Below are positions 18,459-62,264 of a stretch of DNA of 64,000 bases, piece by piece. Below the pieces are notes generated by a model. The model saw nothing but the letters and a program-made list of their open reading frames with translations. It had not been told where the DNA came from and searched no databases. How positions within the stretch are numbered: position 1 is the first letter of the stretch; each line of letters begins with the position of its first letter. The stretch comes from a virus. The stretch lies in the UHGV virus genome UHGV-0277313. One strand, 5' to 3'. A program made the position numbers and the translations under genes.

Positions 18459-18459
18459 A

Positions 18460-21213
18460 TTACATAACACCTAACAATTCGTCTTGATCAGTTAAATCTT
18501 TTGCATGCTTGCACCATTGATTATTATACATTATTAAAGTTTTATCAATTCCTATCTTTGGGTTTTTTATAGGGAATTTATGATCTGGCGTGCATCTTAT
18601 GCTCTGTCCGTTTTCCAACTCTATTTCAACTAACTCATTTACTTCTTTAGTACATTCACAATTATTAATATTATTCCAAGTAAACGTCCCATCAAGTTCT
18701 CTAGTTTTTACTTTATATTGATTACAACTTTTTGCAATATCTTCTATTCTTATATTTCCACTATCTGTTACAACTTCTGTATCACCTGTTAAACAACCAA
18801 AGACACTGTAACCAATAATGTGATTAATATTTGAACCTACCGACAAGTATACATTGTTTGGAAACCTAATGCCATTGCCTTGACGACAGAATGGAACCGG
18901 ATCATTTGGCCCAAACGAATCGAAAGCCGTCATTTTACGAACTTCATGAAAACATGGCGAATTACGAATCATTTCCAATACAGGCTTTAATGCAGTATCC
19001 TGCGCTTGCTGCAATGTAACAGAAATCATCAATGCAGATAAAACAGTATCAGGTGCAATATTGAATAATTTATGAGGCGATCTTAAACAACATATACGAT
19101 AAAGTGCATAAATTAAACCTCTACGCGCAATAGTTGATTTTCCTGAATTGTGTAAAATAATTAAATTTCCTGAATCCGTTACTACAGCAAAATTGTGATA
19201 AACAGGGACTTCTATATCATAGACCGCACATTTTTTATCAAGATCCTGCACATTTTTAACAGTAACACTACCATTATTTGCACACAATATATCATTCTTT
19301 TTTAAATCTTTCGCTTCAACATAATGACCTGAACTCAATAGAAATCTATGATCGCTCGTACATTCTAACGTTGTTCCGTCAGATAAACTAACACTTAATA
19401 CCTTTCTATTCTTTCCAGTACAACGCGCATTAAAAGCTTTTGCTTTTACAAATACATTATTTTTAATGTCATACGATAAAACATTAAATTCATTATCTTC
19501 ACCTAAACTTGCTAAATTTTCAATGGACACTAGTTTGTTATCAGACAATATTTTTGTATCACCAGACAAACAACCAATACTTCCACGAAAAACACAATTA
19601 GAAGCATATACCCCACTGTTAATTGCAAAATTATGATTGCCACGAATACAAACGTTGAAAGTGGATTCGCTTTTTTCTAACAATTTTATACTAACAATTT
19701 TATGATTATATTTGATTTCAACTTTTGTGTTAATATCAAACTTATTGCACCAGGCCTTTAAAGTCTTTACTTTAATACAAGCATTACTTGCACATTCCTC
19801 TATAGTATAACCACAACTTAATATATACCTAACTTCTTCTTCAGTCACCTTTTTTAATAAATCTTTATGATTGATATTATAAAGTTTTAACTTATTGATG
19901 ATATAACATCTGGAACAATTTAATTTCCTTTCAACTTCTCTTAATGAAAAACTATTTTTTAAAGTTTCAATAAAACGCTCCTTTGATATATCTAACCTTG
20001 CTGAAGGATTATTTTTTAAGTTTTTTTCTCTTTGTTTTATTCTTAAATTTTCTTTTAATAATGCACCTTTTTCGCTATTCCAAAAAGCAACAGAAATTTT
20101 GGAAGCATAATTATCTTGCAAATTCCTCAATGACATACGTTTTGAAGCCAACTTATGTTGTTGTTCGTCTGCCCACCTGTTTGCTGAACCTTTTTTTAGT
20201 CTATTTTTTACAGAATCAACAACTTCTTTGACACCATTCTTATAAGCTTCGTTATACAATTTTAATTGTTTTCTTGCGAATTTTGTATGATAATCTAGAT
20301 GTGTCTTACTATCTAAATAAATTAAATTAGTTGGATTGTTATTGTATTTGTTACCATCTTTATGGTGTATGACTTCATAACGTACCCTTTCACCTCTATT
20401 CTTTACAGGTGCTTTATATTTTCTGCCATATTTCCACAATGCACTTAAACGATGTGTGTATTCTGAACTTGCAACAGAAATTTTTGAAGGTATGATTACT
20501 TTTTCATATGATTTCACACCTCTTGCAGTTTTGTCTTCAACAAACCTCTCAAAAGGCATTAATGAATCACCGACTTTTAAATCCTTTGTCAATACCCACT
20601 TATTATTTCTATTCAAAAATTTATGATTTTCAGTACACTTAAAAACTTTTCCATTATCTAAAGTTATTTCATAAACTCTCTTTTCACCACTATATTGAAT
20701 ACCTTCTATTTCACCGGGTTCGACAGAATGTTTTTGTTCGTTCCACGTGTATACATAACAACCTTCATAACCAAATAAACATAAATCTGCTACAGTTTTT
20801 ACAGAACCATCCATTAATGGAATTTCTACATCACCAGTAACACATTCAAAATATTGATTAGATGGATCAAATATTTTTGCTAAAATCTGTCGCCAATAAG
20901 GATAAATAATGGCATACGAATTGCCCATATATGCATCATCTTTCAAGAATTCTTGAATAGTTGGCATATGTTTTTTATAAAGCAAAACATCAAGCTGATT
21001 TAAAAACTGTTCCTGCCCTGTATAATACAAATAGAAACCCATTCTTTTTTCAAAATCAGGCAACTGTTCTAAACGTGAACCACGGGGAATTTGTTCTGAA
21101 TAAAACGAATAAATATCATTAAATTCTTTTGAATGTATCAAGTTAATAATGTTATCTTGATCTTCAACTGAATATACAGGAATTTGATAATTATTGTGTA
21201 AAATCTCAACCAT
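18460..21213 (-). CDS. terL: terminase large subunit, N-terminal precursor fragment: ATPase Walker A region interrupted by two inteins, ending in split-intein N-half (Int-N)
   Basis: Exteins YFE / CVFRGSIG / SGKSTIARRG...IIGYSVFG give P-loop GSIGSGKST and an ATPase domain aligning with T4 gp17; three Hint N-terminal blocks (CVTGDVEIP, CLSGDTKIL, CLTGDTEVV) with TxxH blocks. Confidence 0.8.
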   Translation of the reverse strand: MVEILHNNYQIPVYSVEDQDNIINLIHSKEFNDIYSFYSEQIPRGSRLEQLPDFEKRMGFYLYYTGQEQFLNQLDVLLYKKHMPTIQEFLKDDAYMGNSYAIIYPYWRQILAKIFDPSNQYFECVTGDVEIPLMDGSVKTVADLCLFGYEGCYVYTWNEQKHSVEPGEIEGIQYSGEKRVYEITLDNGKVFKCTENHKFLNRNNKWVLTKDLKVGDSLMPFERFVEDKTARGVKSYEKVIIPSKISVASSEYTHRLSALWKYGRKYKAPVKNRGERVRYEVIHHKDGNKYNNNPTNLIYLDSKTHLDYHTKFARKQLKLYNEAYKNGVKEVVDSVKNRLKKGSANRWADEQQHKLASKRMSLRNLQDNYASKISVAFWNSEKGALLKENLRIKQREKNLKNNPSARLDISKERFIETLKNSFSLREVERKLNCSRCYIINKLKLYNINHKDLLKKVTEEEVRYILSCGYTIEECASNACIKVKTLKAWCNKFDINTKVEIKYNHKIVSIKLLEKSESTFNVCIRGNHNFAINSGVYASNCVFRGSIGCLSGDTKILSDNKLVSIENLASLGEDNEFNVLSYDIKNNVFVKAKAFNARCTGKNRKVLSVSLSDGTTLECTSDHRFLLSSGHYVEAKDLKKNDILCANNGSVTVKNVQDLDKKCAVYDIEVPVYHNFAVVTDSGNLIILHNSGKSTIARRGLIYALYRICCLRSPHKLFNIAPDTVLSALMISVTLQQAQDTALKPVLEMIRNSPCFHEVRKMTAFDSFGPNDPVPFCRQGNGIRFPNNVYLSVGSNINHIIGYSVFGCLTGDTEVVTDSGNIRIEDIAKSCNQYKVKTRELDGTFTWNNINNCECTKEVNELVEIELENGQSIRCTPDHKFPIKNPKIGIDKTLIMYNNQWCKHAKDLTDQDELLGVM
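18463..18795 (-). mobile_element. split-intein N-terminal half (Int-N, 111 aa) of terminase intein 3
   Basis: CLTGDTEVV...IRCTPDHKF... ends at ORF stop without C-terminal HN block; complementary Int-C begins the next terL fragment. Confidence 0.75.
19147..19572 (-). mobile_element. intein 2 of terminase (142-aa mini-intein, no endonuclease domain)
   Basis: CLSGDTKIL...LECTSDHRF...VYHNFAVVTDSGNLIILHN then +1 Ser of SGKST. Confidence 0.75.
19597..20844 (-). mobile_element. intein 1 of terminase (416 aa, HNH-type endonuclease domain)
   Basis: CVTGDVEIP...FKCTENHKF...VIHHKDGNKYNNNPTNL...GNHNFAINSGVYASN then +1 Cys; codon positions checked against sequence. Confidence 0.75.
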
Positions 21214-33573: not shown

Positions 33574-34536
33574 TTAAGATTGCGTTATTTTATTGAAACT
33601 CTTGAAGTATAATTTTAAGAAATGTCTGTACTCAATTCTCTTTTTATACCTATCAGAATACGAATCAGGCTTCATATTATCAGGATCTTCGTCGCCATTT
33701 AATTTAATTATTGTAACTGTTCCATTATAAAATTTTCTTAAGGTTTTGTAATTATTTATAATTTCAGCTCGTGAAACATCCCCGTCGAAACTAAACGAAA
33801 TTTCCGTTGGGTTTTTCGACGCGATAATTCTTGCTTGCGAATCAGCTAATACTTTACCAAAAATAGATACTGCAGTCACATCTTCAGGTGTATTACGGTT
33901 AGCTGCAATACCCGAAAAAACACCTTCAGTAATAATTACTTTACCATTTGTTGATACATTCTGAATATTCCAAACAGCAAATGATTTGTGACTTCCTTGA
34001 GGATTGATATATTTTGCTTCAGGGTTTTCTGATACATAATCACGTGCAACTAAATAAACAACGTTATTATTCAAATCAAACGTCGGAACAATAATCCTTC
34101 CCCGATATCTTCCTTGCCCAATACGGATATCGTATTTTTTAATTTCTTCAAACGTTATATTTCTTGAACGCAGATACTCAACTGCATTAACAAATGAACG
34201 ATCTATTTTTACTGAAATATTGTCCAAATCAATCAATTCAGCTTGAATTAACAGACCACTCGGTGATGTATATTTTATACGCTGTTTAGTATCAATGTTG
34301 TCTAGTTTATATCTTAATAATGCACCACCATTTACATAACCTTGTAATAGCTGATCTACTCTTCCAGACCACCCACATCGATAACAATGAAATACGTTTT
34401 TTTCAAGTGATAAACTTAATTTATAATCATCATAACGTTTACCTAACATTTTACAATTTGGACAATGTGTCACATATTGATCGACATTCGATGTTAAGCT
34501 TACATCTCTCAAACTTTCAACGCGTACATCACACAT
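33574..34536 (-). CDS. DNA primase (gp61-like: zinc ribbon + TOPRIM)
   Basis: CPNCK...HCYRCGWSG zinc ribbon; TOPRIM-like IITEGVFSGIAANR...FSFDGD; directly downstream of DnaB-like helicase as in T4 41-61. Confidence 0.65.
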   Translation of the reverse strand: MCDVRVESLRDVSLTSNVDQYVTHCPNCKMLGKRYDDYKLSLSLEKNVFHCYRCGWSGRVDQLLQGYVNGGALLRYKLDNIDTKQRIKYTSPSGLLIQAELIDLDNISVKIDRSFVNAVEYLRSRNITFEEIKKYDIRIGQGRYRGRIIVPTFDLNNNVVYLVARDYVSENPEAKYINPQGSHKSFAVWNIQNVSTNGKVIITEGVFSGIAANRNTPEDVTAVSIFGKVLADSQARIIASKNPTEISFSFDGDVSRAEIINNYKTLRKFYNGTVTIIKLNGDEDPDNMKPDSYSDRYKKRIEYRHFLKLYFKSFNKITQS

Positions 34537-35408
34537 TATTTAACACCATTAGCAGCTTTTTTCATTTCCTTAACGTCATACGGCTCACATTCTTTCACTT
34601 GATTAGCCGCTTTATCAAAGTTTACATACACAGTTGTATTTGTTTTACCACGACGGGCTTTAGCAACATATAATCTCATTTTACCATTGTCAGACTCTTC
34701 ACGAGTTTGGTTTAATGTAACAATGCCATATGCCACATGCGCTTTTCTTGATGAATCAGCTAACATGTCTTGCGATGCCACTTCATTGTCTTCAGTGTTC
34801 CATGCAGCCTTTCCTAACTGTGAACCTGTAACAACAGGACAATTAAATTGGTCAGCTAACGCCTTCAAGTCATAAAAAATTGTACCCATTTCTTCATATG
34901 TACTTTCAGATGACCGTCGCGTTTGTTTGTTCGGTAACATTAAATCTGCATAGTCTACAATAATTAAACCAGGTTCAAAATTTTCCAAAGAATGTAACTT
35001 CGTCAAATATGTTCTCAAATGATTAGCAGATACTGTTTTATTAGAATAATAAATAGTCCTTACATTAGGTGCCCAATATTTAATTTTCTGCACACGCTGT
35101 TTGTATTTTTCAATTTGTGATTCATCCAATAAATCTCTCATTGACATACCAGTTGAACAGGAAATGATATTTGATAACACTTCCTTTTCAGACCACTCAA
35201 ACGAAAAATACACAACCGGGCGTCTCTGAAACATTGCCTGATATGCCAAAAAGCTCAAGAACTTACTTTTTCCACGACCAGGCGCTCCGCAGTTTTTACT
35301 GTAAAAACAATGACTTAGCTCGAAGTTGTGATACTTATTATTCACCGTCAAATTGTAAACAGGCACCTTTTCATCAAGGTGAATGCGTTTTTTATTTACT
35401 AATTTCAT
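34536..35408 (-). CDS. gp41/DnaB-like replicative helicase, C-terminal fragment (split-intein Int-C + RecA-like ATPase domain)
   Basis: MKLVNKKRIHLDEKVPVYNLTVNNKYHNFELSHCFYSKN (Int-C) then CGAPGRGKSKF (Walker A) and DnaB-like ATPase fold; ATG at 35408 with AAGGAAG RBS (track start 35411 is TTG). Confidence 0.8.
   Translation of the reverse strand: MKLVNKKRIHLDEKVPVYNLTVNNKYHNFELSHCFYSKNCGAPGRGKSKFLSFLAYQAMFQRRPVVYFSFEWSEKEVLSNIISCSTGMSMRDLLDESQIEKYKQRVQKIKYWAPNVRTIYYSNKTVSANHLRTYLTKLHSLENFEPGLIIVDYADLMLPNKQTRRSSESTYEEMGTIFYDLKALADQFNCPVVTGSQLGKAAWNTEDNEVASQDMLADSSRKAHVAYGIVTLNQTREESDNGKMRLYVAKARRGKTNTTVYVNFDKAANQVKECEPYDVKEMKKAANGVK
35292..35408 (-). mobile_element. split-intein C-half (Int-C, 39 aa) of helicase
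   Basis: DnaE-Int-C-like sequence ending ...HCFYSKN followed by +1 Cys. Confidence 0.75.
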
Positions 35409-35518
35409 CAATTACTTCCTTACTTAAACCCAACTTCAGAACATAATCCAAATCGTTTTTGTATAAAAACTTCAGTGATGTTATCACAAAATCAGACAGT
35501 TCGTCAACCTTTAATGTT

Positions 35519-36475
35519 TTAAAATTCATCATCTTCCGACAAATCTTCCGCTTTTTTATATGCAACACCTTCTGACCATATAACTTTTTCATCACCTTTT
35601 TTTGGATTTGTAATTCTAAATTTATGATCAGGTGTACATTTAATTGTATACCCATTATCAAAAGTTAATTCGATCAATTCGTCTGTATCTCTAGTTTTCC
35701 ATACATTATAAATATCAGTTTCGAAAGAGTTTCCATTCTCATCAACTGAATAGGCTTTTTTATCTTTAAAGTTGTTTACCAAATCTTTGATTTCGATGAA
35801 ACCTTTATTTGTTTTCACTTTTGTATCACCTGTTAAACAGAATACATACAGTTCACCTTTTGCAATGCCGCCACCAAAAGCGTCATCTAATGAAGGAATG
35901 CCTGTTGTGAACATATTATCTTTGCCATAACTGTCACGTAACATTTGAGGTAATTCATCAAGTGAACTAACCAAATCTAACCCAAGATTTGTTCCTGCAC
36001 CAACAGACAATGCATCATCGATAATAGATACGGCTTTTTCGTAATCATTTGTTTTATCATACATATCGACCAATTTACCAATTGCATCACGCATTGCAAC
36101 GCTTTTAGCAAAATCTAAAGCTTGATCTTTTATGTACTGTGCGTCTTCAATAACAGTTGTTGTTAAGCTACGAATCACTGAAGCAAAATTTTCTTGTTCG
36201 ACAATAGGAATTGCATATTTACTCGTATAATTATTCAATTCAGTCAACAAAACAGATTCAGTCGGTTTTGTATGATACTGTTCGTAATATGAAATAATCC
36301 ACTGACAAATATTTTGCAAATAGACATTATCAAAAAAAGAAGGTTTAATTAATTCCACGCCAACTGTTGATAAATAGGTGAAATCTTGAAATAATAATGC
36401 AACAATCTTTTTCTGCATTTCAACTTCAAAATTATATGTTGTATCCTGTACAACTTCTTCGTTTTCATTGTCCAT
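35519..36475 (-). CDS. gp41/DnaB-like replicative helicase, N-terminal fragment (DnaB N-domain + split-intein Int-N)
   Basis: DnaB N-terminal-like domain; ...GGGIAKGELYVF then CLTGDTKVKT...IKCTPDHKF... to stop. Confidence 0.8.
   Translation of the reverse strand: MDNENEEVVQDTTYNFEVEMQKKIVALLFQDFTYLSTVGVELIKPSFFDNVYLQNICQWIISYYEQYHTKPTESVLLTELNNYTSKYAIPIVEQENFASVIRSLTTTVIEDAQYIKDQALDFAKSVAMRDAIGKLVDMYDKTNDYEKAVSIIDDALSVGAGTNLGLDLVSSLDELPQMLRDSYGKDNMFTTGIPSLDDAFGGGIAKGELYVFCLTGDTKVKTNKGFIEIKDLVNNFKDKKAYSVDENGNSFETDIYNVWKTRDTDELIELTFDNGYTIKCTPDHKFRITNPKKGDEKVIWSEGVAYKKAEDLSEDDEF
35522..35839 (-). mobile_element. split-intein N-half (Int-N, 106 aa) of helicase
   Basis: CLTGDTKVKTNKGFIEIKDL...TIKCTPDHKFRI...; Cys codon position verified (aca at 35837-35839 on + strand). 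Confidence 0.75.
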
Positions 36476-36514
36476 AACTTTTTCCTTTTAAAAGAGAACT
36501 ACGGTTACCTTATA

Positions 36515-38479
36515 TCAACCTATTCTCGATTCACCCATTTTTTTAATCAACATTTTAAATTGTTCTTCATTTATTTCTGGAATTCCTTCGTTTTCTAGAT
36601 GTTGTTTCCTTTCTCTAGTCCAAGACTCAAGATATGGATGTCCTTTGTCATTAAAATCTACAAACACTGAACAGTTCAATCCTTTATCTTTTCTTCTGGT
36701 TACGCGGCCGATTCTTTGAACATGTGAAATAATATTTTTTCCAGCATCCATCAAGATACCAACATCAAATTCAGGAACATCAATACCTTCATTAAAAACA
36801 ACGTTTCCAACAATTACACGATATCCTTCTTCACGAATTGCCTTTTTAATTGTTTCAGCATTTCCCTTGCGTTCGACAACAACATGTTGAACAATACCTT
36901 TTTTTGTTTTTTCAGTCGCGTCAATAGCTTCATAAATCGTATTACCACCACACATAAATAAAGCTTTAATTCCTTTATCCTTCATTTCACGTACTATTGC
37001 TTTTCCATGTTCAATACGATTAACCATAACCAAAATTTTTAAATTATTCTTGTAACAAAATTCAATACAACGATATGCTGCTTCATTCCTATTAAAACTT
37101 TCTGCAACATATTTCTTATATACATCTGTGCAAGATTTACAAAACACAAATGATTTTGGTGCATAATTAATATAATATGAATAAACTAAAGACGAATATC
37201 CTTTATCACGAAGATACTTTGATGAAATATAATAAAACGAATTACCAAACAACGCTTTTAAAACAATATCATCAACACATTGCCCACCTTCTTTAAAAGG
37301 CGATGCTGTAAACCCAATTAAATATTCAGGATTCGCAACCATTGCGGGTATTGCAATGCTCTGACAGCTGCCGTGATGACATTCATCAACTATAATAGCT
37401 CTTACACTTTTCAGATATCTCATAATTTTTGGATCGTTACGTTTCACCATATTCCAAACTAAATTATTAGTTGAAACAATAATATCTGAATTATCCAAAA
37501 CAGGGTTTCTGTTAAGATATTCAATTTTACGGTCAATACCACGAAGTTTAGCACGACCTTCAATTTGATTTAAAATATTTGTTCGATTATTAATAACTAA
37601 AATTTTCCCATCAATTAATTTAAACAAAGATGCAATGATTTCAGTTTTACCAGAATTATGTACAATCACACCGTTGCTTAATGCAAAATTATGCAAATCA
37701 CAATCAACCTCAATATCATATACAGGAATAGGGTCTACATAATGTTCAGCAAATACTTGCTCAACAACACGACTCCCATAAACACCAGCTACAGGTGATT
37801 CAGCTAAAAGATTGATAGCTTCTACATATTTTCCATTACTTAAAAGGAAAAGATGATCGGGCGTGCATTCAACTTTAACACCATCATTAAATTTAATCTT
37901 CAATGTATCTTTAACATATTTTGACAAATGTGCCGAAACAATTGAATGAAACTTTCCATCTGAACAAAAAACAGACTTTCCATTAAAATTCATACTTAAT
38001 GAACTTAAAGTTTCAAAACCAGTATTTGTTAAAATTAAAGTATCGCCAACAAAACAACCTGTCGCAGCTTCACAGATACCATGTTTATTAATCAAACATT
38101 TTAAAGTACCAATCAATTGATGTTCACGTACTTCAAAACCAGGTGAAGCTAGTGCCATTTCATTATACGCTTGCCTAACCTTTTGCATTGTTGACTTTAC
38201 ATCAATATCAATTACTTTACGCTGATCGATTACAGTTTCAAAATGAAAATACGGTAAAATCAAATCATCAACACAACCTGATTGTACATATAAAGAAGTT
38301 TTTGTATTTTCAACTTCCATATACAATGTAATCAAACTCTGCCCATCAGCTGACAGTAATGTCAAACGTTTTTTTATACGGTTAATAAAATCAGCATCTT
38401 CATCTGAAATTAAAGACCACATCGATTTCGTAATCGTTAACATTTTATTTCTCTCAATTAGACTGTGTTTGAAAAACAA
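36515..38479 (-). CDS. SF2 (DEAD/DEAH-like) DNA helicase with a mini-intein inside the Walker A motif
   Basis: Extein ...KHGICEAATG / SGKTEIIASL (AxxGSGKT); DECHH motif II; helicase C-terminal motifs (TASPFKEGG, HRIGRVTRR). Confidence 0.7.
   Translation of the reverse strand: MFFKHSLIERNKMLTITKSMWSLISDEDADFINRIKKRLTLLSADGQSLITLYMEVENTKTSLYVQSGCVDDLILPYFHFETVIDQRKVIDIDVKSTMQKVRQAYNEMALASPGFEVREHQLIGTLKCLINKHGICEAATGCFVGDTLILTNTGFETLSSLSMNFNGKSVFCSDGKFHSIVSAHLSKYVKDTLKIKFNDGVKVECTPDHLFLLSNGKYVEAINLLAESPVAGVYGSRVVEQVFAEHYVDPIPVYDIEVDCDLHNFALSNGVIVHNSGKTEIIASLFKLIDGKILVINNRTNILNQIEGRAKLRGIDRKIEYLNRNPVLDNSDIIVSTNNLVWNMVKRNDPKIMRYLKSVRAIIVDECHHGSCQSIAIPAMVANPEYLIGFTASPFKEGGQCVDDIVLKALFGNSFYYISSKYLRDKGYSSLVYSYYINYAPKSFVFCKSCTDVYKKYVAESFNRNEAAYRCIEFCYKNNLKILVMVNRIEHGKAIVREMKDKGIKALFMCGGNTIYEAIDATEKTKKGIVQHVVVERKGNAETIKKAIREEGYRVIVGNVVFNEGIDVPEFDVGILMDAGKNIISHVQRIGRVTRRKDKGLNCSVFVDFNDKGHPYLESWTRERKQHLENEGIPEINEEQFKMLIKKMGESRIG
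37655..38056 (-). mobile_element. mini-intein (134 aa) in SF2 helicase P-loop
   Basis: CFVGDTLIL...VECTPDHLF...VYDIEVDCDLHNFALSNGVIVHN then +1 Ser. Confidence 0.75.
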
Positions 38480-40993: not shown

Positions 40994-42355
40994 TTAAAAC
41001 TTATTAACATCTTGCATAAAGAAATTAACGAATCTTAAAGTTTTAGACTGAAAGACTCTTTCATCAAGAGGAAACCTATATTTAAATTTAGATTTCTTTA
41101 ACTCGGAATGAATCTGTTGCCAATTCACAAAACCAACAAAGCACTTTACTTCTTCCAACGAGTGTTTTACTTTGTCTAATAATGATTCTGTTAAATCTGG
41201 AAAGATCACATTCTTCGTTTTGGCTTTAATCTTCTGTATGTATTGAAGATTAAACTCATAGCATCTTCTACTGATTTCAATAGAAGATAACACCATGTCT
41301 GGTAATTCTAAATCTCTATAGACTAGATTACCAATAGTGGATGAATATTGTGGAGATATTTCTATAAACTTAATTCCATAAATATTGCATCTCTTTTTAA
41401 GATTATTGACTAATTTATTTCTACACCAATTATTATTTACAAGTCTATTGAAATTCTTTCCTTGTTTATTATCCTTGGACTTAATAGACAAATCCTCAAC
41501 ACCAAAACATTCGCAATGATAATGTTTTGCTATATCAACAAGAAACTTGGCTACTTTCAATGTTTCATATTGACGTTTATTGTTAAGATATTTTCTTTCC
41601 TTTGATGTTGAAGGTAATTTTAATTTCTTGAGTTTATACTCAATATCATTGATATTCTTTAATGATACTACACCTGAATTTATAGCCTTTAATTCATCAG
41701 ATGATTTCCAGTCTACGACTGACCAACCAACATAATTTGGGTTCATATCGATAGAAAATATTCTGTTTGATATTGGTTTAAATATCTTTTCTGACAATAT
41801 CATTTCATCAAATGAAATATATACAAATTTTTTATCTAATTTGTATGTGATTGGAGTATCTTTCAACTGTTGATGAATATATAATTTTTGTAATACTTTA
41901 ATTCTATTACCAACACCAATAAGTTTTAAGTGTATTCTGTTTTTAATTGTTGGACTAAAGTTGACTGAATAGCAATCTTCAGATAATCTGAAGAATCTAT
42001 TTCCCCTATAGTTTCTATCACCAATTGAACACAAAGATACTAATCTTTTTTCTTTAAATTCTTCATTTGATATGTTGTGTCTAAATCTTTGTTCGAATAG
42101 ACGTTTGCCACCAAATAAAACAGTTTCTTCTTTCTTCAACAAAAATGAAGCATCTTTTACACAAGATTGTCTGAACCATGATTTCATTAAATCAAGATTA
42201 TTGAATTGTAAATGTTTACAAGCAGTTTCAGATACGCCATCTTTTAATCTATTATAAAACAAATGAAGAAGATTATTATATTGCCTCTGATAATCAGCTA
42301 TCAACTGATTATCAGATTCTTTTTCTGCAATATACTTAATCTTCAATGTTATCAT
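40994..42355 (-). CDS. TnpB/OrfB-like RuvC-fold nuclease lacking the zinc finger (paralog 2)
   Basis: SIDMNPNYVGWS, FGVEDLSIK, IEISPQYSSTIGN, RDLELPDMVLSSIEISRRC; collinear with paralog 1. Confidence 0.6.
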   Translation of the reverse strand: MITLKIKYIAEKESDNQLIADYQRQYNNLLHLFYNRLKDGVSETACKHLQFNNLDLMKSWFRQSCVKDASFLLKKEETVLFGGKRLFEQRFRHNISNEEFKEKRLVSLCSIGDRNYRGNRFFRLSEDCYSVNFSPTIKNRIHLKLIGVGNRIKVLQKLYIHQQLKDTPITYKLDKKFVYISFDEMILSEKIFKPISNRIFSIDMNPNYVGWSVVDWKSSDELKAINSGVVSLKNINDIEYKLKKLKLPSTSKERKYLNNKRQYETLKVAKFLVDIAKHYHCECFGVEDLSIKSKDNKQGKNFNRLVNNNWCRNKLVNNLKKRCNIYGIKFIEISPQYSSTIGNLVYRDLELPDMVLSSIEISRRCYEFNLQYIQKIKAKTKNVIFPDLTESLLDKVKHSLEEVKCFVGFVNWQQIHSELKKSKFKYRFPLDERVFQSKTLRFVNFFMQDVNKF

Positions 42356-44199: not shown

Positions 44200-45525
44200 C
44201 TACAATTTTGCCTTAAAGACGGCATCTTTTATTTTATTATAAATAGATTGAAATTGTTCAACAATCCCCATAGTATGATTTAATTGTTTGTTGCTTGTTC
44301 GACCAAACATAATATATTGAACGGCATCTTTAAAGGCACCTGAACGATAATGAATATTCTTGCACCACATCTTAAAATTCTGTGTAACAACATGAATTAC
44401 AGTTGAATATTTATAATTCGTACTCAAAGCAATTTTAGTAATGTTTTCATATAGATATCTTAAATCTGCAACAATAACATCATCTAAAACATCACCATCA
44501 AAACGAAAACCTAATAATTGGCAATTTTCTAGAAATTCATTGAATGTACGCATACAAGTAAAGTTATGTATATTTGGATGTGCATCAACGAAATTTTGAA
44601 TTGTCGGATCTAATCCTTCTGTAACAAATTCAACAGGAATCGTTCTTTTCTGGCCACCAATTAATAAATTTTTCTTCAGTCTTTTGTGCTCTTTTAAAGT
44701 ACGTTGCATTGCAACCTTTTCCAAACGTTTACTATGTTTTGTAAACAATTTGGCAATATTCACATCAGGAATCAATAATGAAGGAACATAATTCGCTTCA
44801 TCAAATGTTTCAGGCTCACCTTCACATGTTTTAATACCCAACCCTTTACGAGTACCATCACCATGTGTTTTACAAAAATAGTGATATGCCACTAAAACAT
44901 TGATAATATTACCCCATTCTAATGAACCAAAACCAAATTCCTTATCGTCAAACCAACCATTTTGTGTTTGAATTGCCATGATGTCATAATCAATTGCATC
45001 TAATCTGGCAAGAATAATAGCTAAAGCGCAATCATGTGTATGAAAATCTTGCACCTTAACTAGTTTTTTATGTACAAATTCTTTTAATTCCAAAAAGACA
45101 TGATTCACTAAATTTGGGTTTTTAGCTAATATATCAATTGCATCTTCAGGTTTATATCTATTCAATGCTTCAATATCATATTGAACAACATTACCTTTAA
45201 TTACCTTACTTTTTTGTACTTTATATGTGCCAAATTGATCCGCCAGTTTTTTAAATACACTTCTCTTATTTTTAATTTTTCCACCACGATCAATACACCA
45301 ATCCATATTGGCAATCTTCATCTTTTCTGGTGCATAATATTGTAAAAATGTCGGGGTGAACCAACCGTAATGACTAGACATCGGCAACCCTGATTTAACA
45401 TACTTCTTCGTGAACTGACGGCCACCTAATTTGTTCATAGTTGTTACTGCAATTTTAGACAAGTCTTTTTTCTTATAAAAGACTATTTCTTCACGTAACT
45501 TTTTTAGAACATTAATAGGTAACAA
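44200..45525 (-). CDS. hypothetical protein (441 aa), first gene of minus-strand block, adjacent to origin-like region
   Basis: Long ORF; no motif recognised. Confidence 0.5.
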   Translation of the reverse strand: MLPINVLKKLREEIVFYKKKDLSKIAVTTMNKLGGRQFTKKYVKSGLPMSSHYGWFTPTFLQYYAPEKMKIANMDWCIDRGGKIKNKRSVFKKLADQFGTYKVQKSKVIKGNVVQYDIEALNRYKPEDAIDILAKNPNLVNHVFLELKEFVHKKLVKVQDFHTHDCALAIILARLDAIDYDIMAIQTQNGWFDDKEFGFGSLEWGNIINVLVAYHYFCKTHGDGTRKGLGIKTCEGEPETFDEANYVPSLLIPDVNIAKLFTKHSKRLEKVAMQRTLKEHKRLKKNLLIGGQKRTIPVEFVTEGLDPTIQNFVDAHPNIHNFTCMRTFNEFLENCQLLGFRFDGDVLDDVIVADLRYLYENITKIALSTNYKYSTVIHVVTQNFKMWCKNIHYRSGAFKDAVQYIMFGRTSNKQLNHTMGIVEQFQSIYNKIKDAVFKAKL

Positions 45526-45619
45526 TGTAGACCAACCTGTTTATCTAGATTTTTATCATAGAACACACTATAGTCTTGTTAAAAAACTTTGTCAACGATC
45601 TTTTTAAAAAAAATCAAAT

Positions 45620-45860
45620 CCTCTACTATATATACTCTTTTATTATATATATATATAAAGATCTGATCATCAAAGTGAATTTCATATCAGAGAAGTGAAC
45701 ATAGATAATATATTTAGATCAGATCAGATCTTTAAGATCATAGAAGAAAAAATAAAAAATCATATGATCACAAAATCAGATCTTATTAAAAAATAAAATG
45801 ATAGAAATATCATTAACTTGAAAAGATCTAAAGATGAATAAAGATTTTAAGATCTCTATA
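45620..45860. promoter_or_regulatory. origin-like element: (TA)n unwinding-type tract followed by a cluster of ten GATC sites in AAGATCW heptamers
   Basis: tattatatatatatataa then agatctgatcat ... tagatcagatcagatctttaagatcat ... atgatcac ... atcagatctt ... aagatcta ... aagatctc read directly; located at divergent strand-switch. Confidence 0.5.
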
Positions 45861-45892
45861 TTTTTAAATACTTAAGATATTAACATTTCATA

Positions 45893-46010
45893 GGGACTTC
45901 GTTCGCTTCGCTTCGCAGGGCTACGCTCACTTCGTCCCTGATTTGTTTCTTTCTTGTATTGTCCTGGGACCCGCCCCTGTTCACTACGTTCACAGAGCCG
46001 ACCCAACCTA
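45893..46010. other. GC-rich (about 58% GC) 120-bp island with CTTCG/TTCAC short repeats in AT-rich intergenic region; possible structured RNA or DNA-protein site
   Basis: gggacttcgttcgcttcgcttcgcagggctacgctcacttcgtccc...gtcctgggacccgcccctgttcactacgttcacagagccgacccaacc; GGGAC/GTCCC pairing possible; not a tRNA cloverleaf by inspection. Confidence 0.35.
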
Positions 46011-46340
46011 TTACTTAAATATTTTAATAAATAAAATAAATAAATAAATATATTCCAAAACTGATTCTCTTCGAAGAAAAGTCAATTGGTGATCATAAAG
46101 CTTAAAAGGTTTTACAGATAAAAAGGAAAATGTTAAAAAGAAAATAGGAATCCCAAAGCTAAAGGATAGAAATATTACACCCATATCCCCGCCAAAAAAT
46201 TTCCGAACGAATGAAATGAAGTTCGGAATAAACAAATATCCTAGCATTCGAATTTTTTGATATTTTAAAAATCAATATCAAATCTAAATTTAATGTTCTT
46301 AAAAGAAAATGTACTGTTTCAATGAATAGGAAATAGGTAA

Positions 46341-56901: not shown

Positions 56902-56933
56902 TATTTCATAAAATAAAGTTTAAGGTGTCTTTT

Positions 56934-58592
56934 ATGAAAAAAGCTATTTGTGAATTTTGCGGTAAAGAATATGAATATGATGAAAACAATATTCGTGTTC
57001 GTGAAGAAGGAAGAAAAGATTCGTATGATTCCTCGCGGTTTTGCTGTTTTCATTGTTTTTCAAAAGAACGTGTTAGAAAACAAAAAGAGACTCTATCTAA
57101 AAGATTGGGATACGAAGTAACCAGTACATTTCATCTTCCAGGAGTTCAAGAAAAAGCTCAAGCCACTAGTCTGAAAAGATACGGTACAAAATTCGGCGTG
57201 TGTTCAAAACAGTCCGTAGAAAAAAGAAGAAAAACGTGTAAAGAACGTTACGGATTTGAAATGCCGTTGCAGAATAAAGAAATTAAACAAAAGACGTATG
57301 ATTCAAATATAAAGAATCATAACGGTACGTATCACTTGCAAACCGAAGAAGTACGCGAAAAGTGTGCTGAAGGTCATCGTACTGATGAATATAGGGAAAA
57401 AGCAAGAAGATTGTTTGATGTTAAATCGAAACATACAGAGTTTGTTGAAAAGTATGGTGTAAGCAATCCTTTTCAATTAGAGTTTGTAAAAGAAAAAAGT
57501 AAAGAAACGTTGCTGAAAAAATACGGTGTTGAAAATATTTCTAAAGATGTTTGTACTTTAGAAAAACGTAGCAATACTCGTATGCTTAATGAAGCAATAA
57601 ATGTTGACAACTTAACAAAAGATTATTTGGAAGAAAATTTTGTTAAAGAAGAAAAGTTTCAATTAAAAGAAGCAGCGGATTATTTTAATGTAACATTGTT
57701 TGCAATGGATTCGTTTAAACAGCAGTTGGATATTGTTATTCCAAATGAAGAAAAGAAGAATAATACATTAGAAACAGAATTCTTTAATTTTATTTCTTCT
57801 TTAACTGATAAAGAGATTATAAGAAATACTAGAAATGTTATTTCGCCTTTGGAGTTGGATATTTATATTCCTACAATGAATCTAGCTTTTGAGTTCAATG
57901 GTGATTATTGGCATAGTGAAAATTTTGGCAGAAGTAAATTTTATCATATTGAGAAAACAAAACAATGTGAGAAAAAAGGAATTCGTTTAATTCATATTTG
58001 GGAACATGAATGGTTAAAAAATGATGAAAAGATCAAACTATTTATCAAAAGTCTTTTTGTTAAACGAGAAAAGATTCGAGCAAGTCAATGTGTGATCAAA
58101 GATCTATCGACAGAGGAGTTTGATAAATTTGCTGATAAATATCATTTGTTAGGTGCAACGTCAACTACAGCTGTTAAGTTTGGTTTGTTTTATGATGATA
58201 CTTTAGTTTCAGCAATAGGTTTGTCTTTTGATAGTAAACATGAATTCTGGAACTTGAAGCGTTACATTATTGGAGAATACCAAGTAATGGGTGGGTTTGA
58301 AAAATTATTTAAATATTTTATTGAAAAATACAATCCGGATAAAATTATTACTTTTGTTGAGTTGTCTAAATTTAAAGGTGATGTAAACTTTAAAAATGGT
58401 TTTGTATTAGATAAGGAATTAGCACCAGATTTCTTTTGGGTTATTAATGATGTCCGTGTAGATAAATGGACAGCATGGAGACAGTTTAAAGAAAGTGATG
58501 AAAATACCGCAGAGTATCAAAAAAAGATGAAAACTTTTGCATTAAAATGTTATGATGCAGGAAAAAGACGGTTAATTTGGAATAAAAGTTAA
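56934..58592 (+). CDS. homing-endonuclease-like protein: zinc ribbon + tandem RYGV-type repeats + Vsr-like PD-(D/E)xK nuclease domain + conserved C-terminal domain (paralog 1)
   Basis: CEFCGK...FCCFHC; repeats ERYGFEMPLQ / KYGVSNPFQ / KYGVENISK; PLELDIYIPTMNLAFEFNGDYWHSE...IRLIHIWEHEW resembles Vsr/DUF559-type nuclease core; ATG with AAGGTG RBS (track start is GTG). Confidence 0.6.
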   Translation: MKKAICEFCGKEYEYDENNIRVREEGRKDSYDSSRFCCFHCFSKERVRKQKETLSKRLGYEVTSTFHLPGVQEKAQATSLKRYGTKFGVCSKQSVEKRRKTCKERYGFEMPLQNKEIKQKTYDSNIKNHNGTYHLQTEEVREKCAEGHRTDEYREKARRLFDVKSKHTEFVEKYGVSNPFQLEFVKEKSKETLLKKYGVENISKDVCTLEKRSNTRMLNEAINVDNLTKDYLEENFVKEEKFQLKEAADYFNVTLFAMDSFKQQLDIVIPNEEKKNNTLETEFFNFISSLTDKEIIRNTRNVISPLELDIYIPTMNLAFEFNGDYWHSENFGRSKFYHIEKTKQCEKKGIRLIHIWEHEWLKNDEKIKLFIKSLFVKREKIRASQCVIKDLSTEEFDKFADKYHLLGATSTTAVKFGLFYDDTLVSAIGLSFDSKHEFWNLKRYIIGEYQVMGGFEKLFKYFIEKYNPDKIITFVELSKFKGDVNFKNGFVLDKELAPDFFWVINDVRVDKWTAWRQFKESDENTAEYQKKMKTFALKCYDAGKRRLIWNKS

Positions 58593-58660: not shown

Positions 58661-58849
58661 TTTAAAATAACTTTTTTAACTTTTTTATATTTTTTGTACT
58701 TAATTACTTGTTCTTAAATTTCAGATAGTTAAGTCTATCATTCATTTTCCTATTCGCGGCGTTATTCGGTTAACATTTCTATCACTTTCTCTATACGTTT
58801 TTGTATAGGGTATTTAATCGTTTAATAAACCTTGATTAGGAGAATTATA

Positions 58850-60346
58850 ATGGGTTTTTTCCAAACAATTAACGAATCTGTTGCCGAAAAAGCGGCTCTA
58901 ACAGAAAGCCAGACAGTTGCTCGTGGTAAACGTGCTCTAGCTGAACATGCCGATTGGAAAGGCCGTTTCTCTAAATTGGAAGCGATGATGGAATCTGCCG
59001 ATGCTGCCGAAGCGAAAAAAGCTAGTGTTACAGCGCAGGTTATGTCAAATCTGTCCAATTTGATGGAACGCCAGAAAGAATATTACACTGAAGCGACATT
59101 CACTTCAATGTTAGGACCTATGGCTATGTTAACCCCGCGCGTTTTGGACATCGTTGGCGTGTTCTATCCAAACATGATTGCGCACCTGATTACAGACATC
59201 CAGGTTATGGATCGTTCAACAGGTGAAATCTTCGTTCTGCGCCCTCGCTATGGTTCTGACGCTGCTGGTGTTACAGCTGGTCAGGAAATGTGGGTTAATC
59301 AGACAGACGGAACCTATGCTTCTGAATATCGTTCAGCTTCTGCGAACGGTGGTGAAACAGACGGGACCACAACCGAATTTGCGGTTTCTGGTTTGACAGC
59401 TTCTGGTGGTCCTTTGCGTCGTGGTTCAGTTACCATTAAATTGGCTGGCATTGTTGTTGGTCGTGATGACGCTCATGGCATCATGGTTGGTAAAGATCGT
59501 GAAGGTCATGTTGTTTCCGGTACAGTTGATTATGACGCTGGTGACATTACAGTTGCTTTCTCTGCCGCTCCTTCAGCTGGCAAGAGCATTATGATCGACG
59601 CGTATGTTGATTCAGAAGAAGATCCTTCTTTGATCAATGAAGTCAACTTTGACATTCAGGCTGTTCCTGTTACAGCCCGTGCGCATCCTTTGCGTTACAC
59701 TGTTTCTGCCCAGGCGACATTGGTTGCTTCAGCGCACCTTGACGTTGATGTCAATGAAGTTCTGACAAACATTGCTGCTGGCGCGATCAAACAGGAACGT
59801 GACGTTGCTCTGGTCAACATGTTGGTTGCTGCTGCGACACATCTGGATACTCTCGACTTCGACCTGGCTGATGCTACAGTCAACTATCGTAACAAACGCG
59901 ATCGTTTCGCTGATATCGAACTGAAAGTCAACGAAGCCCAGACGAAGATTCAGACCGTTGCTGGCCGTGGTGGCGTTTCCTTCATTGTTGCTGGTGCGAA
60001 TGCTGCGAACTGCTTCCGTTTGGTTGAAGGTTTCGAAGCGGCTCCTGAAGCGACAAATGCGACAGTTGGTCCTTACAAGATGGGTGCTATTCGCAATGGT
60101 ACCGTTCCTGTTATCTGCGTTCCTATTTCCCGTACTCTGAAAGCTGACGATTTCGTTATCGGATTCCGTGGCTTCCAGGCTGGTGATAGCGCGACAGTGT
60201 TGGCGGAATGGATTCCTTTGTATTTCACCCCATTGTTCGAAGCCCCCAATTTACAGAATAAACGTGGTCTGATGAGTTTGTACGACATGTTGACAAACCG
60301 TCCTGAATACCTCGTTTCTGGTAAAGTTAAAGGCTATAACGCTTAA
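58850..60346 (+). CDS. major capsid protein (T4 gp23-like)
   Basis: NMIAHLITDIQVMDRSTGEIFVLRPRYG aligns with T4 gp23 NLIAFDICGVQPMNSPTGQVFALRAVYG; ATG at 58850 with AGGAGA RBS (track start 58832 is TTG); GC-richer codon usage. Confidence 0.9.
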   Translation: MGFFQTINESVAEKAALTESQTVARGKRALAEHADWKGRFSKLEAMMESADAAEAKKASVTAQVMSNLSNLMERQKEYYTEATFTSMLGPMAMLTPRVLDIVGVFYPNMIAHLITDIQVMDRSTGEIFVLRPRYGSDAAGVTAGQEMWVNQTDGTYASEYRSASANGGETDGTTTEFAVSGLTASGGPLRRGSVTIKLAGIVVGRDDAHGIMVGKDREGHVVSGTVDYDAGDITVAFSAAPSAGKSIMIDAYVDSEEDPSLINEVNFDIQAVPVTARAHPLRYTVSAQATLVASAHLDVDVNEVLTNIAAGAIKQERDVALVNMLVAAATHLDTLDFDLADATVNYRNKRDRFADIELKVNEAQTKIQTVAGRGGVSFIVAGANAANCFRLVEGFEAAPEATNATVGPYKMGAIRNGTVPVICVPISRTLKADDFVIGFRGFQAGDSATVLAEWIPLYFTPLFEAPNLQNKRGLMSLYDMLTNRPEYLVSGKVKGYNA

Positions 60347-60402: not shown

Positions 60403-60449
60403 GTTTGTGATACAATTAATTTAGTTATTTTATTTTGAGGAAATTTATT

Positions 60450-62264
60450 TTGAATAGTAATTGGCAAGATGAGTTAAGAAAATTTTTCACTGAATATGAT
60501 TTTTCTGGATTTGTTTTGGAAATCAATAGTGGAAAAGAGTTTCAGTTTGGCAGTATCAGTCAAAATAAAAAGTTATTTTTAAATGTACAAAAAGAGTTGT
60601 CAAATTATTTTTCAAAACCTGGTGATTTAGGTGCATGTTTACTTTACCTAAAAGATCATTCAATAGATGAGTTGCTTAACAAATTAGAATGTCCAGTTTG
60701 TCATAAATTTAATGGTGTGTTTAGATTCAACAGACAACGTTGTGATGAGCATGTTTTTTGTTCAAGAGATTGTCGATATTCGTTAAAAGGTAAAACTTTA
60801 TTGATGAATCGATATAAAGAGAAAACAGGGTACGATAGTCCATATAGCAACCCAAAAGTTCAACAGAAACGAAAAGAGAACTTTTTGAGGAACTATGGTG
60901 TTGAATCGCCTATGCAAGTAGAAGAGTTTAAGAAAAGAAATATAGAAAGCAATAGAAACAATCACTGTGGTCTTCTAGCATGTCAGACTGAAGAAGTTAA
61001 GTTAAAAATAAAAGAAACGAATTTAAAGAATCACCATGGTGTGTTTAATTTGCAATTACCTGAAACAAAAGAAAAGTTAATTAAGCTGTCAAATGAACGA
61101 TATGGTGTAGATTTTCCTATAGCGAATAGTGACATCAGAAACAGACAGGAAAGGTTTTACGATGGTGTTGGTTTAGCATCATATATAATTAGAAAGAAAG
61201 CAGAAGAAACGTTTGGTGGGCCTTTAAACGGGTCTAATCCAATTATTTTTGAAAAGATGAAACAAACGGTAGAAAACAAAACAGGAAAGAGTTTTGAAGA
61301 AGCTGTTACTGAAAACATGCAACGTGGTTTAAAAGAAAAGTTTGGTGATGAAATAGGTTTTGCCAATGAAAAGATTGCAGCTAAAATTCAGAAACAGGTT
61401 GTTGAAAAATTTAACGTTCCTTATTTTTGTTTAACTGATAAATGTAGACAGGCAAATAAAAAGACAATTTCAAAAAGAAATGTGATGTTTGCCGAAAAGT
61501 TGAGAAAGTTAGGTTATGAAGTTGGTTTAGATTCGGTAAAGCTTGAGACTTTTTCATACGATATCTGTTTGGAAAAAGAAAAGATTTTGATAGAAATAGA
61601 TCCATCTTTTACACATAATTCGACAAGAAACCCGTTTGGTTCTGTACGGTTACCAGATTATCATTTAAGGAAATCTGAAGTTGCAAGAAGGTTTGGTTAT
61701 AGGTGCATTCACATTTTTGATTGGGATGATGAAAAAAAAGTTTTAGGTTTATTTGAAAAGAGCGAAAGAATCTATGCTAGAAAGTGTGAAGTTAGGGTAG
61801 TTGATTTTGAAAGTTGTTCAGAATTCTTAAATCGCTATAGTTTAACGAATTGTTTAACAAAAGAAGATGTTTGTTTATGTTTGTTTTATAATGAACTATT
61901 AGTTCAAATTATGGTTTTTGGAAAACCTAGAAAAGATAAAGACATTCAATATGAATTGTTGCATTTTTGTAGCAGAAAAGGTTTTAGAATCATTGGTGGT
62001 GTAAGCAGGTTATTCAGCTATTTCAAAAATAAATTTAAACCTGAATCATTAGTTTCATATTGTGATTTTTCAAAATTTGAAGGAGCTGTTTATGAAATTT
62101 TAGGGTTTCATAAAGTTGACGAATTGATACCAGTTTGTCATCTATCCAAAAAGAAACAACAATTCATTATTGAAGATAGTTGTGAAAAGATAGATTTGAT
62201 AGAAAAAGGTTTTGTAGAAGTTTTTGATTGTGGCTATAAAAAATATTTGTTTTGTGTAAAATAA
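60450..62264 (+). CDS. homing-endonuclease-like protein (paralog 2; zinc ribbon + RYGV-type repeats + Vsr-like nuclease + C-terminal domain); apparent TTG start
   Basis: CPVCHKF...CDEHVFCSRDCRYS; RNYGVESPMQ, ERYGVDFPI repeats; ILIEIDPSFTHNS...RCIHIFDWDDE nuclease core; no in-frame ATG near 5' end, TTG at 60435 or 60450 (latter has GAGGAA RBS). Confidence 0.55.
   Translation: MNSNWQDELRKFFTEYDFSGFVLEINSGKEFQFGSISQNKKLFLNVQKELSNYFSKPGDLGACLLYLKDHSIDELLNKLECPVCHKFNGVFRFNRQRCDEHVFCSRDCRYSLKGKTLLMNRYKEKTGYDSPYSNPKVQQKRKENFLRNYGVESPMQVEEFKKRNIESNRNNHCGLLACQTEEVKLKIKETNLKNHHGVFNLQLPETKEKLIKLSNERYGVDFPIANSDIRNRQERFYDGVGLASYIIRKKAEETFGGPLNGSNPIIFEKMKQTVENKTGKSFEEAVTENMQRGLKEKFGDEIGFANEKIAAKIQKQVVEKFNVPYFCLTDKCRQANKKTISKRNVMFAEKLRKLGYEVGLDSVKLETFSYDICLEKEKILIEIDPSFTHNSTRNPFGSVRLPDYHLRKSEVARRFGYRCIHIFDWDDEKKVLGLFEKSERIYARKCEVRVVDFESCSEFLNRYSLTNCLTKEDVCLCLFYNELLVQIMVFGKPRKDKDIQYELLHFCSRKGFRIIGGVSRLFSYFKNKFKPESLVSYCDFSKFEGAVYEILGFHKVDELIPVCHLSKKKQQFIIEDSCEKIDLIEKGFVEVFDCGYKKYLFCVK

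Follow-up and report, generated by a model that had tools for sequence, protein, structure and literature searches.

A single-copy GC-rich island with minus-strand mini-hairpin motifs in an uncultured jumbo phage: a candidate priming or loading signal at a putative replication origin

The window analysed here, a stretch of 64,000 nucleotides (64 kb; 31% GC) from a large uncultured jumbo phage whose complete relatives are ~313 kb in size, contains a non-coding, GC-rich island that occurs once, carries d(GCGNAGC) mini-hairpin motifs on the minus strand only and is conserved above its flanks among close relatives. By analogy with characterised priming systems, the island is quite possibly, though we put this forward tentatively, a strand-specific ssDNA hairpin that signals priming or loading at a replication origin. 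It would then represent a known kind of signal in a new variant and not a new category. To our knowledge, the replication origins of uncultured jumbo phages are essentially unmapped, and if this reading is true, the island would provide a sequence signature for locating origins in metagenomic phage genomes. We regard it as conceivable but doubtful that the jumbo dsDNA phages of this clade share an undescribed origin module, in which a single-copy, one-strand mini-hairpin array serves as the SSB-resistant start of a DnaG/DnaB-type primosome.

The island and its surroundings

The window codes for a T4-type portal, a prohead protease, the major head protein, an NAD-dependent ligase and a RecA-like protein, together with a DnaG-type primase, a DnaB-type helicase, several inteins and homing endonucleases. 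No close cultured phage was found among 50,697 phage records, the portal reaching at most 29% identity. Almost all genes left of 45.5 kb lie on the minus strand and those right of 46.3 kb on the plus strand, and the island is located within the 815-bp spacer (45526-46340) between these diverging blocks, flanked by a 441-amino-acid (aa) gene and a 497-aa gene, neither of which could be assigned to a family. The 441-aa protein gave no match in Pfam, PHROG or PDB, and a role as initiator is unsupported for it (3 homologues only; AlphaFold model with a pLDDT of 34). Neither the spacer nor the flanking protein matched any of the 50,697 phage records in blastn and tblastn searches. A conserved promoter-like motif lies close to each of the two flanking genes (45595-45567 and 46293-46305), and the central ~650 bp of the spacer is therefore more than just a leader. 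The motif at 46293-46305 reads ATGTTCTTAAAAG and lies ~40 nt upstream of the start of the 497-aa gene; since the word (A)TGTTCTT is kept at the equivalent place in relatives of 47%-99% aa identity, and GTTCTT in those of 42% and 51%, a phage promoter motif is probable here. The features of the window on which the following sections draw are:

33574-34536: DnaG-type primase gene (PHROG 47 at 1.5e-35; Pfam DNAG_N, Zn ribbon and Toprim all weak)
34536-35411: DnaB-like helicase gene
45650-45870, unstranded: GATC cluster, an AT-rich TT(T/A)AGATC array left of the island
45892-45939, minus strand: hairpin 1, outer stem A-GGGAC / GTCCC-T, with the CTTCG tandem (minus strand: CGAAG) in the loop
45905-45926, minus strand: mini-hairpin motifs GCGAAGC (45905-45911 and 45910-45916) and GCGTAGC (45920-45926)
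45940-45963, unstranded: linker, T-rich (A-rich on the minus strand) and fast-evolving
45964-46006, minus strand: hairpin 2, apex A-C-GUA-G-U with a GNA triloop
46010-46065, unstranded: A+T run, nearly pure A+T with (AATA)n, right of the island
46201-46228, unstranded: second conserved hairpin, TTCCGAAC-13 nt-GTTCGGAA; loop purine-rich in plus-strand reading

The helicase gene appears to be split or interrupted at ~35411-36515, and inteins with Intein_splicing and HNH domains are found in several replication genes (14174-21213 and 35519-38479). Paralogous homing-endonuclease genes (56925-58592 and 60435-62264) lie on either side of the major head gene (58832-60346), which has 47% GC with peaks of 57%, compared with 31% in the genome. 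A 453-aa ORF on the minus strand (40994-42355), with weak TnpB/Cas12f-like matches (TNB and RuvC-like, E ~0.03; PHROG transposase, 9.6e-5), is probably an insertion, since the relatives L007 and L008 (contigs are designated by L numbers) have no gene of such size at the corresponding place. This TnpB-like gene is 3.5 kb away from the island with three conserved genes in between, and a link through a TnpB guide RNA was rejected; a retron or DGR was likewise dismissed, as the neighbouring genes scanned include no reverse transcriptase.

The island spans 45892-46006 (45893-46010 in the preliminary description) and has no second occurrence in the window. It is GC-rich as initially described, but the 58% GC then given is too high: the content is 55% over 45893-46010 and 56% in the best 100-bp window, compared with 18-28% in the adjoining 120-bp windows. 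Among all 100-bp windows of the 64 kb it ranks second in GC content; the others at the top lie in long ORFs, mostly the major head gene, and one of them comprises the end of the protease ORF and a terminator-like hairpin. The words GGGAC (45893-45897), GTCCC (45934-45938) and GTCCTGGGACCC (45961-45972) and the tandem CTTCG TTCG CTTCG CTTCG (45897-45916; TRF: period 5, 4.2 copies) are all present as reported earlier, and so is the adjoining GATC cluster, with 13 GATC in 45001-46000 compared with 0-7 per kb elsewhere. The non-coding status proposed at that stage is borne out by comparison of strains. L012, whose flanking protein is 99% identical, has one CTTCG unit fewer, which is a 5-bp indel in both overlapping minus-strand ORFs, and in the L001 lineage the plus-strand ORF contains indels of 1-2 nt; frame-breaking indels of this kind between near-identical strains exclude a coding island. 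The low-complexity 78-aa ORF at 46011-46247 was also discarded as a gene, being broken by indels in L012 and L001.

Mini-hairpin motifs, folding and conservation

On the minus strand the CTTCG and CTACG words read CGAAG and CGTAG and, with their neighbouring bases, form GCGAAGC (twice, overlapping) and GCGTAGC. With a mini-hairpin defined as GCGNAGC or GCGNNAGC (two G-C pairs around a GNA loop), the island contains three exact copies, all on the minus strand. GCGNAGC is found six times in 128 kb (both strands of the 64-kb window), and three of the six lie within the 118-bp island, whereas dinucleotide shuffles of the island contain a mean of 0.045 copies (P<2e-4), corresponding to a >60-fold enrichment. 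Given this enrichment and its conservation above the flanks, the island is more than chance. No GCGNAGC is present on the plus strand of the spacer or in the spacers of island-less relatives, and in a scan of the 64 kb for stems of at least 4 bp around GNA only AT-rich chance hairpins, none of them GC-closed, were detected elsewhere.

The same number of motifs is found in a second lineage, represented by L001 and L138, which also has three minus-strand and no plus-strand GCGNAGC, with shuffle statistics as in the window, but their places differ: in L001/L138 the apex of hairpin 2 is GCGTAGC and hairpin 1 has two GGCGAAGCC, whereas in the window lineage the GCGTAGC copy is located in hairpin 1 and the apex of hairpin 2 is ACGTAGT. 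As far as the sequences allow us to judge, the motif is maintained while its positions turn over between lineages, which argues that selection keeps the motif itself on the minus strand; we consider this the strongest single argument. An iteron-like or protein-binding site had also been suggested, but 99%-identical strains differ in how many CTTCG units they have and the lineages differ in where these lie, and GNA-triloop mini-hairpins explain the units better.

GCGNAGC folds around a GNA loop, with two G-C pairs and a sheared G-A pair, and as DNA melts at 70-76 C, whereas the RNA version is far weaker, with r(GCGAAAGC) melting at 39 C compared with 76.5 C as DNA, and two consecutive mini-hairpins bind SSB poorly (PMC13037366). 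Mini-hairpins are found at the primase start sites of G4 (GCGAAAGC) and St-1/alpha3 (GCGTTAGC), in RSF1010 ssiA (CCGAAGG) and in the hairpin promoters of the N4 vRNAP (GCGGAGC), which are composed of 5-7 bp stems with GGA/GAA triloops (PMC13037366).

The island is composed of two stem-loops and a T-rich linker. Hairpin 2 reads UUGGG-UCG-G-CUCUGU-[GAACGUAGUGA]-ACAGGG-G-CGG-GU-CCCAG on the minus strand and includes three G-U/G-T pairs that can form on this strand only, as the plus strand would have C-A mismatches. The RNA folding that had been suggested as a check reveals a structure signal on the minus strand (z = -2.74 and -2.75 against shuffles in two lineages) and none on the plus strand (z = +0.31 and -1.37), with the limit that an RNA hairpin and a DNA hairpin are indistinguishable by standard folding. 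With DNA energy parameters the minus and plus strands score z = -3.17 and -1.13, respectively, in L001, and -1.09 and +0.31 in the window, where the inner helix of hairpin 1 is weak and pairs slightly better on the plus strand.

Conservation was assessed among homologues of the 497-aa protein and their contigs. The island is present only in close relatives with at least 90% identity in this flanking protein, namely the window-type L012 and L140-L145 (99% aa) and the second lineage at 90% aa, which includes L001 (identical to L055 and L089) and L138 (96% identical to L001 in the 497-aa protein). Relatives at 42-67% aa identity lack it, and their spacers are elaborate in L003 and merely ~280-300 bp long and repeat-free in L007, L008 and L014; the gene arrangement can therefore do without the island. 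A covariance model built from five distinct island sequences and run on the window and on the loci of island-less relatives found one minus-strand copy in the window and nothing further in either. The 17-mer core of hairpin 2 is single-copy in the window as well as in a 313-kb relative. In one complete 313-kb contig (IMGVR_UViG_3300013426_000013) the island is located at ~227.6 kb, and gut metagenomes containing the phage include ERZ27263847 and the runs SRR1612249 and SRR1611553. It also matches 117 bacterial contigs, and in the 80 of these 117 that were examined the matches are all single-copy and nearly all due to chance in GC-rich genomes, matches that extend beyond the core being confined to two phage contigs binned into MAGs (L055 and L089); a low-GC match (L018/L044) lies inside a gene. 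Based on these 80 contigs, a CRISPR-repeat mimic or host-derived sequence was ruled out, and a repeated or mobile element was rejected as well, with no second copy in the window and one per 313-kb contig.

Within the island, constraint is distributed unevenly. Between the window and L140, identity is 65% in the GATC cluster, 96% in hairpin 1, 91% in the linker and 100% in hairpin 2, and between the window and L001 it is 43-45% in the flanks, 56% in hairpin 1, 45% in the linker and 87% in hairpin 2, which is the best conserved segment of the entire spacer. All differences in hairpin 2 between the window and L001 are located in the apical loop, and its stems are invariant in 5/5 distinct sequences. 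L001 and L138 differ by five changes in the 22-nt linker, one in hairpin 1 and none in hairpin 2. Two compensatory pairs were identified, both in L001 and L138: in hairpin 1 a G-C pair of the outer stem has become A-U (GGGAC/GTCCC to GGAAC/GTTCC), and in hairpin 2 the A-U pair beside the triloop has become G-C (ACGTAGT to GCGTAGC). The inner stem pairs are all intact, the sole loss in L001/L138 being the A-U at the outer end of hairpin 1. Since it consists of two events that separate two lineages, the support from covariation is real yet thin. The search in related phages that had been recommended has thus located the island in a clade at 90% aa identity or above, with hairpin 2 conserved above the flanks, and both conservation and a structure signal, the lack of which had been named as speaking against a functional element, are present.

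Many independent contigs end inside the spacer (L004-L006, L015, L016, L139, L141, L142 and L146), and L139 starts within the loop of hairpin 2; these ends could reflect strain-level hypervariability, sequencing drop-outs at hairpin or AT-rich DNA, or a physical genome end. In L015 (47% aa), an unrelated, isolated GC-rich palindrome, GGGGCC...GGCCCC, is found at 61-108 in nearly pure A+T DNA, ~75 bp upstream of the homologous gene.

A putative origin and rival explanations

The cumulative GC skew of the window is V-shaped with a minimum at 46072, 60-180 bp from the island, and together with the repeat arrays and AT runs of the spacer this may mark an origin, although the skew is confounded by the switch in transcription direction with which it coincides. 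However, two plus-strand genes that lie within the left arm show a skew of ~0 (-0.006 and -0.044), compared with +0.06 to +0.34 in right-arm plus-strand genes and -0.09 to -0.31 in left-arm minus-strand genes, which argues that the skew does not arise from transcription alone. Judging from these two genes only, part of the skew appears to be position-dependent and to switch its sign at this point, as would be expected of an origin. The origin proposed in the preliminary description hence has indirect support from the replication genes, the repeat arrays and the skew switch, whereas nothing was found in favour of the pac site also proposed there. DnaA boxes are absent from the spacer.

Other elements of the spacer differ in how far they are retained. 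At the place of the GATC cluster, L003/L004 have an array of TTTAGAAT/TATAGAAT, and in the sublineage L140-L145 (99% aa) most GATC next to the island are gone, so that GATC as such is not the conserved feature. Conservation reaches further for the second hairpin (46201-46228), which follows a C-rich run, than for the island: all lineages down to 63% aa retain its CGAAC/GTTCG core, and its extended stems covary, with ACGAACGCC/GGCGTTCGT (GCC/GGC) in L003 and CCGAACACC/GGTGTTCGG (ACC/GGT) in L004. A left element at 45683-45712 is composed of two direct AGTGAA(C) words (45683-45700) followed by TAGATAAT. The repeated word at its place in L003 is GAGCGAG, and its recurrence in the loop of the second hairpin of L003 suggests a putative lineage-specific binding word.

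In the proposed model, the flanking AT-rich repeat DNA would open and the minus strand of the island would fold into two stem-loops, capped or filled with d(GCGNAGC)/C-GNA-G mini-hairpins, which are expected to be extraordinarily stable and poor SSB binders. We infer that such DNA hairpins form in vivo and would leave a structured, SSB-free landmark on otherwise SSB-coated ssDNA, at which the phage DnaG-type primase and/or DnaB-type helicase may start, as in G4-type and RSF1010 ssi signals. Extension of a primer on the minus-strand template would run to the right and cross the skew switch at ~46.07 kb. For a leftward fork no matching plus-strand signal was found, except perhaps the hairpin at 46201-46228. 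The two-sided pair changes indicate that pairing is selected, and the minus-strand asymmetry is also seen with DNA parameters; the absence of the island from relatives at 42-67% aa, the lack of DnaA boxes and the loss of GATC in L140-L145 speak against the model.

The minus-strand structure could also belong to a transcript, either a non-coding RNA that represents a new structured family or a structured segment within a longer leader, acting as a regulator or as a processing/stability element, and in this case the family would be restricted to the clade. The strand asymmetry in RNA folding, the three G-U pairs of hairpin 2, the two compensatory pairs and the conservation of both hairpins above the linker are as expected for an RNA, and the GAA/GAA symmetric internal loops of hairpin 1 in L001 might form tandem sheared G-A pairs in RNA too. 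However, the Rfam and tRNA searches put forward earlier yielded no Rfam match at the gathering score in the 64 kb, none on the island even at E<=10, and no tRNA or tmRNA with ARAGORN; no conserved sigma-70-like promoter was found upstream on the minus strand, and a scan of 45526-46340 for intrinsic terminators (GC-rich stem and direct T/U run) detected none, neither after hairpin 1 nor after hairpin 2, the T-rich linker 3' of hairpin 1 on the plus strand not being retained in L001/L138. GCGNAGC is, in addition, far less stable as RNA, the invariant stems of hairpin 2 are uninformative on RNA pairing, and for the inner helix of the window's hairpin 1 the plus strand would offer the better pairing. 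A small RNA, one of the initial suggestions, is thus possible but not favoured, its strand-specific structure signal and two compensatory pairs being set against the lack of an Rfam family, tRNA, promoter and terminator, and we consider it unlikely. Recognition as duplex DNA, either by a protein at an operator or initiator site (GTCCYRGGAC and GTGAAC words) or as a GC clamp limiting the melting of AT-rich DNA, appears quite improbable. Brendler, Abeles and Austin reportedly described, in 1991, a G+C-rich stretch beside GATC repeats in the P1 oriR core, and the island similarly lies between two AT-rich tracts and beside a GATC cluster. Hairpin 2 is, moreover, conserved in sequence and not just in pairing, GTAGTGAAC of its loop in the window recurs in the left element of relatives (CGTAGTGAAC and GTGAACGTAG), and AGTGAA(C) occurs twice at 45683-45700. 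Yet both sides have changed in concert, from GGGAC/GTCCC to GGAAC/GTTCC in the outer stem and from A-T to G-C at the apex, which speaks for pairing within one strand and not for independent duplex sites; a clamp alone would not account for the enrichment of a single 7-mer on a single strand, and the excess of GTGAAC is weak, with 30 per 64 kb and the two copies of the island derived from one 9-bp duplication. GTGAAC is also missing from the island of the L001 lineage, and the words common to the hairpin-2 loop and the left element were set aside as too weak and not kept in L001.

The position of the island between two diverging transcription units would also suit an N4-like hairpin promoter, in which a phage polymerase reads an extruded GNA-loop hairpin in the template strand, or a transcription stop or insulator, and the N4 promoters indeed have GGA/GAA triloops and the GCGGAGC mini-hairpin (PMC13037366). 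We regard this as very improbable, because no other GC-closed GNA hairpin is found in the 64 kb with its ~40 genes, and hence no promoter family, because the flanking genes have promoter-like motifs of their own, and because neither an N4-like vRNAP nor a conserved terminator-like T-run was identified. The least probable of the explanations weighed here is a functionless or selfish GC-cluster insertion that has recently spread by recombination. GC clusters are carried by the AT-rich mitochondrial DNA of yeast, and the patchy distribution of the island (present in the clade at 90% aa or above, absent at 42-67%), the different GC-rich palindrome at the equivalent spacer in L015 and a genome rich in homing endonucleases and inteins, with a TnpB-like gene, agree with such an origin. 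However, the 17-mer core is single-copy per 313-kb genome, no extra copy of the island was found in the window or the loci searched, and the bacterial matches among the 80 of 117 contigs examined comprise only mis-binned phage contigs and chance 17-mers in GC-rich genomes or coding DNA. The unequal constraint across hairpin 2 (87%), hairpin 1 (56%) and linker (45%) between lineages is not expected after a recent wholesale transfer, and compensatory changes are present.

Comparison with known priming and hairpin signals

The likeness of the island to known priming signals is an analogy of mechanism and not membership. The ssoA elements of rolling-circle plasmids have in common with it a strand- and orientation-specific, GC-richer, folded non-coding element. 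The CS-6 hexamer TAGCGT/TAGCGA is, however, present only in the hairpin-2 loop of L001/L138, and the phage is not a rolling-circle replicon. Identity with ssoA was rejected, as no match to an RSB (TTATGCCGAGAAAATTT) was found near the island and no TAGCGW in the island of the window. The hairpin promoters of the N4 vRNAP are similar in their short GC stem, GNA-type purine triloop and recognition as extruded ssDNA, but they are present in several copies upstream of early genes, whereas the island is a single locus that belongs to no promoter family, in a phage with no recognisable vRNAP.

The ssiA and ssiB signals of RSF1010 (IncQ) are hairpins that become accessible when the helicase unwinds the DNA and that the plasmid primase recognises (PMC8567376). 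They share with the island hairpin signals with a mini-hairpin, CCGAAGG in their case, beside iterons and AT-rich DNA. In contrast to the one copy on one strand and the DnaG-type primase of the phage, RSF1010 has two 40-nt copies on complementary strands and the Pri-type primase RepB'; a second, near-identical signal on the complementary strand was found neither with the covariance model nor as GCGNAGC on the plus strand. The complementary-strand origins of G4, St-1 and alpha3 have a one-strand hairpin cluster with an apical mini-hairpin motif, and in the island hairpin 2 has C-GTA-G (window) or GCGTAGC (L001) at its apex. The phage, too, encodes a DnaG-type primase, and the proposed logic of SSB exclusion would be alike. 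G4-type origins differ in their motif, GCGAAAGC or GCGTTAGC (four-base loop), and in their ssDNA genome; in a ~313-kb dsDNA phage the strand would be exposed only after opening of the origin. If our preferred reading as a priming or loading signal is true, the island would be a dsDNA-phage counterpart of the G4 and RSF1010 ssi signals.

The closest likeness in sequence is to the mini-hairpin DNA of Hirao and co-workers (reviewed in PMC13037366), with the same 7-mers, GCGAAGC (twice) and GCGTAGC, on one strand, a C-GTA-G triloop capping hairpin 2 and, in the relatives, GGCGAAGCC twice and GCGTAGC once. Unlike an isolated mini-hairpin, the island has several predicted copies within two larger stem-loops in the spacer of a dsDNA jumbo phage. 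As a priming or loading signal, it would be the first natural case of several mini-hairpins kept by selection while their positions turn over, and it allows testing whether mini-hairpins are general landmarks for priming or loading.
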